A program made the position numbers and the translations under genes. A stretch of 64,000 nt of DNA from the NCBI RefSeq assembly GCF_058153355.1, contig NZ_CM177019.1, one strand, 5' to 3'. This document shows, in pieces, positions 21,843 through 44,985 of the stretch. Below the pieces are notes generated by a model. It did no database searches and had not been told where the DNA came from. It saw nothing but the letters and a program-made list of their open reading frames with translations. Positions within the stretch are counted from its first letter, which is position 1. Every line of letters begins with the position of its first letter.

Positions 21843-23357
21843 ATGTCACGTAACAAAATAATCATAAAGAATACTATGTTTTTGGCAACAAGAACCTTAG
21901 TTTCTTTAAGTGTTTCATTTTACACAACAAGAATAGTTATACAACAGTTGGGGGCGGCAGACTATGGCTTATTTAATATCATTTATGGAGTTGTAACATT
22001 TTTTACATTCGTAGTCACCGCGATGAATGATTCTGTACAGCGTTATATTGCAATAGGTGTTGGTTCACAAAAAATATCGGTTATTAGAGATGCTGTAAAA
22101 AATAGTATGTTTATATTTGTTATATCTGCTTTCATATTGGCAGTATGTCTTCTTTTGGCAAGGGGGGTGATCATACATAATATTTTAAATATACCTAAAG
22201 ATTCTATTGAAAATGCAAGTGTGTTATATTTGGTTGCAGTATTTTCAATAACCATACTTATAATTCAGACGCCACTTAATGCGATGGTGTTAGCATACGA
22301 GAAAATGTCATTTTACGCATACATGATGATATTTGAAATGGTAGCTAAAATGAGTATGGCTTTGTTACTAACTTTACTGGAAAAAGATAAGGTCATTGTA
22401 TATTCAATACTTTTAGGTTCTATTTCTTTTTTTAACTTGTTGGTTTATTTATGCTACTGCTTGATATGTTTTAAAAAATCAATGTTTGGTGGGAGAATAA
22501 AATTTAGAGTGCTGAAAGAAATTTCAACTTTTTCATTTTGGAATATATTTGGTAATTTCTCTTACATGTGCAGAGTTCAGGGAGTGAACATTGTAATTAA
22601 TATGTTTTACGCTATAGCCGTGAATGCAGCATATGCGATTTCGATTACTGTTTTAAATGCAATTAATACACTTACGCAATCATTAATTACAGCATTAAGG
22701 CCTCAAATATTTAAATCATATGGCGAATGTGATTTAAAAAGATATAATCATCTAGTTCTCTTTGGTTCAAAATATACATTTTCAATATTGTTTCTGTTAA
22801 GTAGCCCTGTAATTCTATGTGCGGATGAGTTGTTAAAGATATGGCTTGATATTGTACCAGATTATACAGTTGAATTTGTGAGGTTGGTCATTGTTGTGGC
22901 TTTTATTGATAGTTTTTCATATAGCATGATTGCTGGTATTCAGGCTACGGGTAGGATTAAAACATATCAACTAGTTGTTAGTTTAATTGTCCTAATTAAT
23001 TTGCCGTTAACCTTTATTTTGTTTAAGGCAGGAAATAATGTTTTAAGTATGTTTTATCCATTTATTGTTACTGCCATTATCAATCAAGGTTTAAGGTTGT
23101 ATTTTATCTATATCAATGCAGGTTTTGATTATAAGAAGTATTTCACTGTTGTGATCTATCCTTGCTTGTTAGCTGTATGCTTATCGTTAGTGACAGATAT
23201 TTCAATTAAAAAAATGCTTCCATTTAACAGTGTTATTGATGTTTTAATTGTGTGTATTTTTATTTTTTCATTCAATACAATAATTTTTTATTGGGTTGTA
23301 GTTTCTAAAAAGGAAAAAAAATGGTTATTAGAAACCCTGAAAAGAAAAGTGAAATAA
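21843..23357 (+). CDS. wzx: O-antigen flippase (Wzx family)
   Basis: 504-aa strongly hydrophobic polytopic ORF; AT-rich; first gene after JUMPstart; start could be a downstream ATG. Confidence 0.7.
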   Translation: MSRNKIIIKNTMFLATRTLVSLSVSFYTTRIVIQQLGAADYGLFNIIYGVVTFFTFVVTAMNDSVQRYIAIGVGSQKISVIRDAVKNSMFIFVISAFILAVCLLLARGVIIHNILNIPKDSIENASVLYLVAVFSITILIIQTPLNAMVLAYEKMSFYAYMMIFEMVAKMSMALLLTLLEKDKVIVYSILLGSISFFNLLVYLCYCLICFKKSMFGGRIKFRVLKEISTFSFWNIFGNFSYMCRVQGVNIVINMFYAIAVNAAYAISITVLNAINTLTQSLITALRPQIFKSYGECDLKRYNHLVLFGSKYTFSILFLLSSPVILCADELLKIWLDIVPDYTVEFVRLVIVVAFIDSFSYSMIAGIQATGRIKTYQLVVSLIVLINLPLTFILFKAGNNVLSMFYPFIVTAIINQGLRLYFIYINAGFDYKKYFTVVIYPCLLAVCLSLVTDISIKKMLPFNSVIDVLIVCIFIFSFNTIIFYWVVVSKKEKKWLLETLKRKVK

Positions 23358-42197: not shown

Positions 42198-43097
42198 TCA
42201 CTCCATCATCTTCTCAATCGGCAGGACCAGGATTGAACTGGCACCCAGCGCTTTCAGTTTTTCCATCGTTTCCCAGAACAGGGTTTCGCTACTGACCATG
42301 TGCATCGCTACGCGTTGTTGGTCACCCGCCAGCGGCAGAATGGTTGGGCGTTCGGCACCTGGCAGCAGGGCGATGACTTCATCCAGACGTTCGGTCGGTG
42401 CGTGCATCATGATGTATTTTGATTCGCGCGCCTGGATCACACCCTGAATACGGGTCAGCAGTTTGTCGATCAGTTGCTGTTTGGATTCTTCCATTTCGCC
42501 ATCGCGCTGGATCAGGCAGGCTTTCGAGCGGTAGATAACTTCGACTTCGCGCAGGCCGTTAGCTTCCAGCGTGGCACCGGTGGAAACCAGATCGCAAATC
42601 GCATCCGCCAGTCCGGCACGCGGCGCAACTTCGACAGAGCCGTTCAGTAAGCAGGATTTAAAAGAGATACCTTTCTGGTCGAGATAACGCTTGAGCAGGT
42701 GAGGATAAGAGGTGGCGATACGTTTACCATTTAAGGAGAGCGGACCGTCCCAGGCTTCATCAACCGGCGTTGCCAGCGAAAGGCGGCAGCCGCCGAAATC
42801 CAGACGACGCAAGGTAAAGTAGCGCGGATCTTCACCCTGGGCGCGGCGGTTAAGCAGCTCTTCTTCCAGCACGTTTTCGCCGATAATCCCAAGGTCTACC
42901 ACGCCGTCCATTACCAGACCGGGAATGTCATCGTCACGCACGCGCAGAATATCAATCGGCATGTTTTCTGCCATCGCGATCAGGCGCTGGGTGTGAAGAT
43001 TGATTTTAATGCCACAGCGCGCCAGTAATTCGCGTGAGTCATCACTTAAACGGCCGGATTTCTGCATAGCTATGCGTAAACGAGTGTTGTCTGTCAT
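42198..43097 (-). CDS. hisG: ATP phosphoribosyltransferase
   Basis: 299-aa from [15 protein letters not shown]; the longer ORF start at 43136 rejected. Confidence 0.95.
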
Positions 43098-43145
43098 TTT
43101 CTTATTCCTCTTTAAACCTGTCTGAACCGTTAACAACCGCGCAAT

Positions 43146-43182
43146 AAAAAAGCCCCCGGAAGGTGATCTTCCGGGGGCTTTC
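43146..43182 (-). terminator. his attenuator terminator hairpin
   Basis: On the - strand: gaaagcccccggaagatcaccttccgggggctttttt between hisL and hisG. Confidence 0.8.
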
Positions 43183-43242
43183 TCATGCGTTCATGCACCA
43201 CTGGAAGATCTGAATGTCTTCCAGCACACATCGCCTGAAAGA

Positions 43243-43293
43243 CTAGTCAGTATGATGGTGATGATGGTGGTGTTTAAATTGAACGCGTGTCAT
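43243..43293 (-). CDS. hisL: his operon leader peptide
   Basis: 16-codon ORF on the - strand, MTRVQFKHHHHHHHTD, with seven consecutive His codons just upstream of the attenuator. Confidence 0.9.
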   Translation of the reverse strand: MTRVQFKHHHHHHHTD

Positions 43294-43540
43294 AAAAGTC
43301 TCTGTGAATGTTTATTCAACTGATGTCTTTTAACCTAAACCACTTTCACGTTAGAAAGCAAGGGCTTTTTTATATATTTTATGGCGATGGATTTGTTTAA
43401 TGAATGAGCGGGGAAAGGAGGGGGCTAAGAGGACTGTCCTCTAACTTGACAGCACCAAAAAGAGCAAAGTCTGATTTTTCGTCTCGCTGGCAATGTCTTG
43501 ATCTACAAACTAATTAATAAATAGTGAATTAACACCCATC

Positions 43541-43562
43541 ATTGTACAATGAACTGTACAAA
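43541..43562 (+). promoter_or_regulatory. candidate YefM-YoeB operator (TGTACA palindromes)
   Basis: attgtacaatgaactgtacaa: two TGTACA cores with 6-bp spacing immediately upstream of the yefM start. Confidence 0.5.
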
Positions 43563-43575
43563 AGAGGAGATTTAC

Positions 43576-43827
43576 ATGCGTACAATTAGCTACAGCGAAG
43601 CGCGTCAGAATTTGTCGGCAACAATGATGAAAGCCGTTGAAGATCATGCCCCGATCCTCATTACTCGTCAGAATGGAGAGGCTTGTGTTCTGATGTCACT
43701 CGAAGAATACAACTCGCTGGAAGAGACGGCTTATCTACTGCGTTCCCCCGCTAACGCCCGGAGATTGATGGACTCAATCGATAGCCTGAAATCAGGCAAA
43801 GGAACGGAAAAGGACATTATTGAGTGA
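43576..43827 (+). CDS. yefM: antitoxin YefM
   Basis: 83-aa from [17 protein letters not shown]; 4-nt overlap with the following toxin gene. Confidence 0.9.
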
Positions 43828-44078
43828 AACTAATCTGGTCTGAGGAATCATGGGATGATTATCTGTACTGGCAGGAAACAGATAAGCGAATTGTTAAAAA
43901 GATCAATGAACTTATCAAAGATACCCGCAGAACACCATTTGAAGGTAAGGGGAAACCAGAACCCCTGAAACATAATTTGTCAGGTTTCTGGTCCCGACGC
44001 ATTACAGAGGAGCACCGTCTGGTATACGCGGTTACTGATGATTCACTGCTCATTGCAGCATGTCGTTATCATTATTGA
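43824..44078 (+). CDS. yoeB: toxin YoeB (ribosome-dependent mRNA interferase)
   Basis: 84-aa ORF ([22 protein letters not shown]...) coupled to yefM. Confidence 0.9.
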
Positions 44079-44160
44079 ACAGATTCATTCATAGAATGAA
44101 TTGTCAGTTTTGATACGCTAGCGTAGCCTTATAGATCTAAGGTGTATCAGGAGATAACGG

Positions 44161-44985
44161 ATGAAAAAGGTCGCAATTGTCGGGTTAGGGTGGTTAGGCA
44201 TGCCGCTGGCGATGTCACTTTCAGCGCGAGGCTGGCAAGTCACCGGGAGTAAAACCACACAAGATGGTGTCGAAGCGGCCCGAATGAGTGGCATTGATAG
44301 CTATCTGCTTCGCATGGAGCCTGAGTTAGTTTGCGATTCTGACGATCTGGATGCCCTGATGGATGCCGATGCGCTGGTCATTACGCTTCCGGCACGTCGT
44401 AGCGGCCCCGGCGATGAGTTCTATTTACAAGCGGTACAAGAGTTAGTGGATAGCGCGCTGGCCCATCGTATTCCCCGCATTATTTTTACCAGCTCGACAT
44501 CTGTCTATGGCGACGCGCAAGGCACGGTGAAAGAAACCACCCCGCGTAATCCGGTGACCAACAGTGGACGAGTATTAGAAGAACTCGAAGACTGGCTGCA
44601 CAATTTACCCGGTACTTCGGTCGATATTCTGCGTCTTGCGGGCCTGGTCGGACCGGGACGTCATCCCGGACGCTTCTTTGCCGGAAAAACCGCCCCTGAT
44701 GGTGAACATGGTGTTAATTTAGTCCATTTAGAAGATGTTATTGGCGCTATCACTCTGTTGTTACAGGCACCTAAAGGCGGACACATCTATAATATATGTG
44801 CGCCAGCTCACCCTGCGCGTAATGTTTTCTATCCGCAGATGGCCCGTTTATTGGGGCTGGAACCTCCGCAGTTCAGAAATAGTCTGGACAGCGGCAAAGG
44901 TAAGATTATTGATGGCAGTCGGATTTGTAATGAACTGGGATTTGAATACCAGTATCCCGATCCGCTGGTAATGCCGCTGGAGTAA
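44161..44985 (+). CDS. yeeZ: NAD(P)-binding Rossmann-fold protein
   Basis: 274-aa ORF; VAIVGLGWLGMPLA motif; conserved neighbour of yefM-yoeB. Confidence 0.8.
   Translation: MKKVAIVGLGWLGMPLAMSLSARGWQVTGSKTTQDGVEAARMSGIDSYLLRMEPELVCDSDDLDALMDADALVITLPARRSGPGDEFYLQAVQELVDSALAHRIPRIIFTSSTSVYGDAQGTVKETTPRNPVTNSGRVLEELEDWLHNLPGTSVDILRLAGLVGPGRHPGRFFAGKTAPDGEHGVNLVHLEDVIGAITLLLQAPKGGHIYNICAPAHPARNVFYPQMARLLGLEPPQFRNSLDSGKGKIIDGSRICNELGFEYQYPDPLVMPLE

Follow-up and report, generated by a model that had tools for sequence, protein, structure and literature searches.

The yefM-yoeB operon of Escherichia coli is a known module and is among the best-characterised toxin-antitoxin (TA) modules of type II. 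In K-12 the antitoxin YefM represses its own operon and the toxin YoeB enhances this repression, and a YefM2-YoeB heterotrimer is mentioned in the same work (PMC1802561). DNase I footprints of YefM on the K-12 promoter revealed a long (L) repeat, 5'-TCATTGTACAATGA-3', that is protected first, followed by a short (S) repeat that shares the TGTACA core of L and lies 12 bp from it, centre to centre, with the footprints covering the -10 hexamer (PMC1802561). Primer extension by Kedzierska et al. gave +21 as the position of the yefM ATG and -7 to -5 as that of an alternative ATG further upstream, and a transcript divergent from the his promoter, seen in vitro decades ago, was probably that of yefM-yoeB (PMC1802561). 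The K-12 promoter has been described as a -10 box TAcAAT and a -35 box TaGttA separated by a 17-bp spacer and repressed through steric hindrance (PMC7730913). The structure of YoeB in complex with the 70S ribosome has established that the toxin binds in the A site and has assigned roles to its catalytic residues (PMC3814384). For a toxin of identical sequence, both the cutting of mRNA in a ribosome-dependent manner and the inhibition of growth are documented (PMC3814384; PMC6821326).

The DNA analysed here, a single stretch of 64,000 nucleotides referred to as the window, appears from its sequence to carry, with a probability of about 97%, an intact copy of this chromosomal operon encoding wild-type proteins, in the usual chromosomal place. 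The layout is that of a type II TA system, with the antitoxin gene first and the toxin gene directly 3' of it on the same strand, encoding proteins of 83 and 84 aa in overlapping reading frames. An intact pair with overlapping stop and start had been claimed in the original prediction, and the two plus-strand reading frames are indeed both intact and share 4 nt, GTGA, with the yefM stop TGA (43825-43827) lying inside the GTGA that starts yoeB (context ATTGAGTGAAAC). The overlap suggests that translation of yoeB is coupled to that of yefM. The coordinates of all features are collected in Table 1.

Table 1. Features of the yefM-yoeB cassette and its his-proximal flank, in window coordinates
Feature	Position	Strand	Evidence
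Whole yefM-yoeB cassette, 652 bp	43432-44083	+	Alignment with O157:H7 strain Rafaela_II lacking the cassette
yefM, antitoxin and autorepressor, 83 aa, ATG start	43576-43827	+	PDB identity, Pfam, NCBIfam, RefSeq annotation
yoeB, toxin of 84 aa acting as ribosome-dependent mRNA endoribonuclease, GTG start	43824-44078	+	PDB identity, Pfam, NCBIfam, RefSeq annotation
Promoter -35 hexamer, TAGTGA	43522-43527	+	17 bp upstream of the -10 box; PMC7730913
-10 box TACAAT, inside the L palindrome	43545-43550	+	PMC7730913; alignment with MG1655
L (long) operator, perfect 14-bp palindrome TCATTGTACAATGA, primary YefM site	43539-43552	.	Exact match to the K-12 footprinted L (PMC1802561)
S (short) operator repeat with TGTACA core, its centre 12 bp from that of L	43555-43560	.	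Motif search; PMC1802561
Shine-Dalgarno GAGGAG, 6 nt before the yefM ATG	43564-43569	+	Sequence inspection
Predicted RNA hairpin over the yoeB stop and right cassette junction	44067-44115	+	Folding, inverted-repeat search
hisL leader peptide gene, translation MTRVQFKHHHHHHHTD, divergent neighbour, outside the module	43243-43293	-	Translation; annotated in matching genomes
Rfam His_leader, 126.6 bits (gathering score 49)	43144-43267	-	Rfam search

The assignment of both genes to yefM-yoeB was made in the original prediction as well, and it is borne out by structural, profile and annotation evidence. YefM is 100% identical over 83/83 residues to residues 4-86 of chain A of PDB 2A6Q, and YoeB is 100% identical over 84/84 residues to chain E of the same entry. 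The window YoeB sequence is the one common to PDB entries 2A6Q, 2A6R, 2A6S, 4V8X, 6NY6, 6OTR, 6OXA and 6OXI, which comprise free, YefM-bound and 70S ribosome-bound forms, and its 84/84 identity to these eight entries assigns it the RelE-like microbial RNase fold. Both proteins score well above curated cut-offs: YefM with Pfam PF02604 (96.8 bits, cut-off 29.8, profile positions 1-73 of 74) and with the NCBIfam equivalog NF008499, titled ‘YoeB-YefM toxin-antitoxin system antitoxin YefM’ (186.6 bits, cut-off 121, positions 1-83 of 83), and YoeB with Pfam PF06769 (146.3 bits, cut-off 27, profile positions 1-80 of 80) and with the NCBIfam equivalog TIGR02116, ‘Txe/YoeB family addiction module toxin’ (132.8 bits, cut-off 51.8). 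RefSeq annotation agrees, naming yefM as WP_001259255.1 and yoeB as WP_000767829.1 in strains with identical or near-identical DNA at this locus. When YoeB was aligned with the characterised toxin no catalytic or substrate-binding residue proved to be lost; Glu46, Arg59, Glu63, Arg65, His83 and the C-terminal Tyr84 are all present in the translation, because the protein is 100% identical to the one crystallised. That the module is a well-known one, as had also been remarked, is evident from the crystal structures, ribosome complex, footprinted operator and mapped promoter already published.

The longest reading frame at yefM, of 92 aa, begins at an ATG at 43549 and was rejected in favour of the annotated and experimentally supported start at 43576. 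The published alternative upstream ATG maps to 43549-43551 of the window, and since it lies upstream of the mapped transcription start (-7 to -5) it is not the true yefM start. Three antisense reading frames within the module on the minus strand (45, 41 and 64 aa) were unsupported and were set aside.

The TGTACA palindromes that the original prediction placed at the promoter are found at 43543-43548, in the centre of the L palindrome, and at 43555-43560, and they overlap the -10 box and the mapped start. The arrangement TGTACA-N6-TGTACA has one match in the 64-kb window and none in 100 dinucleotide-preserving shuffles. What had been termed a candidate operator equals the published DNase-footprinted K-12 operator (PMC1802561), so that at the sequence level, by identity to the footprinted sites, operator palindromes overlap the promoter. 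The left bound of the original prediction, 43541, falls within the L palindrome, and the -35 box lies further upstream. Placed from the published K-12 positions, the transcription start would be at 43556, within the S core. A consensus promoter and terminator scan of 43200-44250 called no yefM promoter and no terminator after yoeB; the promoter was placed from the literature because its weak -35 box (3/6) escapes such a scan. Promoter-like and terminator-like calls on the minus strand inside yoeB were dismissed, being at the level expected from shuffles.

The mechanism of the module has been established for proteins of identical sequence, and we infer the same for the strain in hand. A weak sigma-70 promoter (TAGTGA, 17-bp spacer, TACAAT) would drive a bicistronic mRNA beginning about 20 nt before yefM. 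A YefM dimer would occupy L, over the -10 box, and next S, over the start site, and thereby exclude RNA polymerase, with YefM-bound YoeB expected to act as co-repressor and strengthen the repression. In the YefM2-YoeB heterotrimer the C-terminal region of YefM would wrap around YoeB and neutralise the toxin. YefM is predicted to be labile to Lon, and its depletion would leave free YoeB in the ribosomal A site, where the toxin would cut the A-site codon of the mRNA 3' of its second nucleotide and translation would stop. The general base of this cleavage would be Glu46 and the general acid His83, with Arg65 and Tyr84 stabilising the transition state.

The module lies between hisL and yeeZ, where RefSeq annotates yefM and yoeB in genomes that possess them, and the immediate neighbours of the cassette are core genes (the his operon, yeeZ and yeeY). 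The two transcription units diverge, as had been claimed for the his promoter, because hisL and the His_leader are on the minus strand and yefM-yoeB is on the plus strand. A permissive E-value Rfam search of 42800-44400 returned only the His leader and nothing within the module; the other Rfam matches all overlap the his attenuator terminator and score far below their gathering scores. Codon 15 of hisL (43249-43251, minus strand) is ACT in the window, so that the leader ends in HHHHHHH-T-D, and is Pro (CCT) in K-12 and in six other sampled strains. Strains Z503 and VL7S7, whose DNA is identical or near-identical here, share the variant hisL protein WP_071779509.1. The Thr variant is probably without effect on attenuation because it is located after the His run.

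Elsewhere in the window, an O124/O164-type O-antigen cluster occupies about 21843-31940 (wzx 21843-23357, wzy 27746-28849). Over 20000-56000 the window is near-identical to strain VL7S7, the O-antigen cluster of which is likewise of the O124/O164 type. The right end, 55033-64000, is rich in insertion sequences, starting with an IS110-like ISSso6 transposase reading frame (55033-56208) followed by ISL3 and IS3 transposases, and also holds PfkB kinase, DMT transporter and phosphotriesterase-related genes in a stretch that differs from VL7S7. The pair cbtA/cbeA, annotated in VL7S7, is absent from the window on a direct check, and past about 56 kb the two sequences no longer agree.

Alignment with the O157:H7 strain Rafaela_II, which lacks the cassette, gave an exact left junction at 43431|43432 and an equally exact right junction at 44083|44084. 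Between the same junctions Rafaela_II carries 210 bp of unrelated REP-like filler (GCCGGATGCGGCGTGAATGCC..., locus L002 1733-1942). The G+C content of the cassette is 43% and that of the window 47%. A palindrome, AGAGGAC-T-GTCCTCT (43428-43442), spans the left junction; it is specific to the cassette-bearing allele and is invariant in the eight alleles compared below. The predicted hairpin at the right junction has an inner stem ATTCATTC/GAATGAAT (44083-44101) that forms a perfect 8-bp inverted repeat, and an MFE of -15.9 kcal/mol (z = -3.5 against shuffles). No U-tract follows its stem, and the terminator scan made no call there; the hairpin may possibly be a 3'-end or stability element.

A 1-kb query around the module found matches in 5423 of 5426 complete E. 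coli genomes. The cassette is carried by 4209 of the 5426 (78%), and in 1198 (22%; e.g. O157:H7) it is replaced at identical junctions by the 210-bp REP-like filler, with hisL, the his leader and yeeZ retained around the empty site in those cassette-less genomes that were inspected. The yefM-yoeB module is thus itself an accessory element at this site. Its presence or absence matches the strain-variable TA content described for E. coli (PMC2654758, Table 2).

This distribution bears on the idea that the module stabilises neighbouring accessory DNA, such as the O-antigen cluster, through post-segregational killing of cells that delete it. The variable O124/O164-type cluster does lie about 8 kb past the far end of the his operon and about 15 kb from the cassette, and relatives of the cassette are carried by large plasmids of IncF type, on which addiction modules do have a DNA-stabilising effect. 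TA systems have also been found to stabilise super-integrons and some islands (review PMC2654758). However, the genes that adjoin the cassette are core rather than accessory, the flanking genes persist in the inspected members of the 1198 genomes without it, and those chromosomal TA systems that were put to the test failed to prevent large deletions or to stabilise plasmids (PMC2654758). A stabilising role at this locus is considered very unlikely. The most defensible view is that the cassette was acquired horizontally and is a self-maintaining addiction module whose expression stays repressed, and its physiological benefit to the host is debated.

To compare alleles within E. coli, the window was aligned with K-12 and with six further strains picked at regular intervals along the BLAST ranking (n = 8). 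Both TGTACA cores and the entire L palindrome are invariant across the eight alleles, and between the cores only base 43553 varies, in one strain. Variable columns make up 2.4% of yefM, 5.1% of yoeB and 15.6% of the 90 bp from the left cassette junction to the -35 box. Within those 90 bp, the untranscribed spacer 43443-43496 occurs as two haplotypes with different bases at 14 of the 54 sites (about 25%), a divergence several-fold above that of the his regulatory region, the operator and the coding sequence; relaxed constraint together with two old cassette lineages may account for this dimorphism. A structured RNA in the spacer was rejected on the result of RNAalifold, which with the eight alleles found no base pair in 43443-43496 and no compensatory change anywhere. 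The window haplotype also has a perfect TTGACA (43446-43451), which was discarded as a promoter element, as it is without an acceptable -10 partner and is missing from the K-12 haplotype. The -35 box is TAGTGA in the window as against TAGTTA in K-12 and the six other sampled strains, and this one-base change (T to G at 43526) probably has a small effect.

One of the eight alleles, that of strain AVS0193, encodes YoeB T19A and R65L (locus L005 625-879) together with YefM G74D. The loss of a catalytic arginine in R65L probably attenuates the toxin, and attenuated yoeB alleles are on this basis taken to occur in nature. The existence of such an allele in one of eight sampled, together with the dispensability of the cassette in 22% of complete E. 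coli genomes, is compatible with the window copy being a decaying, non-functional remnant that merely appears intact. Against this, the window proteins are identical to biochemically active reference proteins, none of the eight coding differences from K-12 changes an amino acid and the operator is intact, leaving the idea of a remnant scarcely credible next to the reading of an intact operon.

The setting of the cassette also gives some basis for a regulatory coupling of yefM-yoeB with his, for example by supercoiling between the divergent promoters or by upstream sites common to both, or for balancing selection on two alleles. The his promoter, which is under stringent control, is always about 160 bp away from the cassette and is transcribed divergently from it, the cassette is exchanged with the REP filler at exact junctions, and its two spacer haplotypes are joined to an invariant operator. 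No description of either the coupling or the allele balancing was found in the literature, and both are put forward as long shots, highly improbable as they stand.

The relevance for persistence that had been claimed for the module is not upheld in K-12. The model holds that under stress Lon degrades YefM, and that the free YoeB then renders cells dormant and antibiotic-tolerant. Overproduction of Lon reportedly triggers YoeB-dependent inhibition of translation, a finding credited to Christensen et al. 2004 (cited in PMC2654758), and the toxin residues of the window copy appear catalytically intact. Earlier models tied ppGpp, Lon and TA systems to persister cells, as summarised in PMC6016239. 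The same study, however, found that in an independently built strain deleted for 10 TA systems including yefM-yoeB, persistence to ofloxacin and ampicillin was unchanged, that a sensitive yefM-yoeB promoter reporter was uncorrelated with persistence in single cells, and that the strain behind the original model had been compromised by phi80 prophage infection (PMC6016239; see also PMC5727415). K-12 without yefM-yoeB and other TA systems displayed no stress, fitness or persistence phenotype (PMC6016239). The persistence model is therefore already largely refuted for K-12, and it is regarded as unlikely that the module acts here as a stress or persistence effector. The value of the present result lies in a correct annotation, namely that the module appears intact, that it is accessory at its site and that the K-12 persistence rationale no longer holds.

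Among known systems, the locus is most like yefM-yoeB of E. coli K-12 MG1655 (b2017/b4539), with which it agrees in lying between hisL and yeeZ, in its orientation to his and in the complete sequences of YefM and YoeB. Nor does any base differ in the L and S repeats, the -10 box, the Shine-Dalgarno sequence or the GTGA overlap. It differs from MG1655 at eight of 503 coding positions, all synonymous, in the -35 box (TAGTGA against TAGTTA), at 43573 between the Shine-Dalgarno sequence and the ATG (T against G), and in carrying the other upstream spacer haplotype (14 differences in the 54 nt of 43443-43496).

More distant relatives are found on plasmids: a Citrobacter sp. TSA-1 IncFIB/IncFII plasmid, Salmonella Milwaukee pIncFII.1 and E. 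marmotae pEM148. Homology in these three begins a little upstream of the promoter, ends at the yoeB stop and amounts to 82-86% nucleotide identity, and their YoeB proteins are 93-95% identical with every catalytic residue kept. They retain the L core TTGTACAAT, the 12-bp spacing and a -35 region of TAGTTA or TGGTTA. They differ from the chromosomal cassette in their plasmid setting and unrelated flanks, in an S core with one mismatch (AGTACA or TGAACA) and in partly degenerate outer arms of L. The Citrobacter copy (locus L011 1565-2067; 86% nucleotide identity) is situated between traT and traD in an F-type transfer region. Three top ‘plasmid’ matches in E. coli (0.39-4.8 Mb) look chromosomal and misfiled, and were excluded as evidence of mobility.

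The axe-txe module of the Enterococcus faecium plasmid pRUM resembles the locus in its homologous Phd/YefM-type antitoxin and YoeB/Txe-type toxin (TIGR02116), and in having a -10 box TACAAT and an operator of L and S repeats (PMC7730913). It differs in its stronger -35 box (TTGctt) and additional upstream promoter, and in the placement of its repeats, with L in the spacer and S only partly over the -10 box, because of which its repression is weaker and probably exerted at a later step (PMC7730913). With relBE and the RelE family the locus shares a toxin of microbial-RNase-like fold that cleaves mRNA in the A site on the ribosome (PMC3814384). In the profile searches YoeB gave weak matches to RelE/StbE and ParE, that to RelE_StbE (23.0 bits) being below the cut-off of 27.9. 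YoeB is only about 15% identical to RelE and, unlike RelE, retains the canonical Glu/His acid-base pair, touches both ribosomal subunits and is weakly active on naked RNA (PMC3814384).
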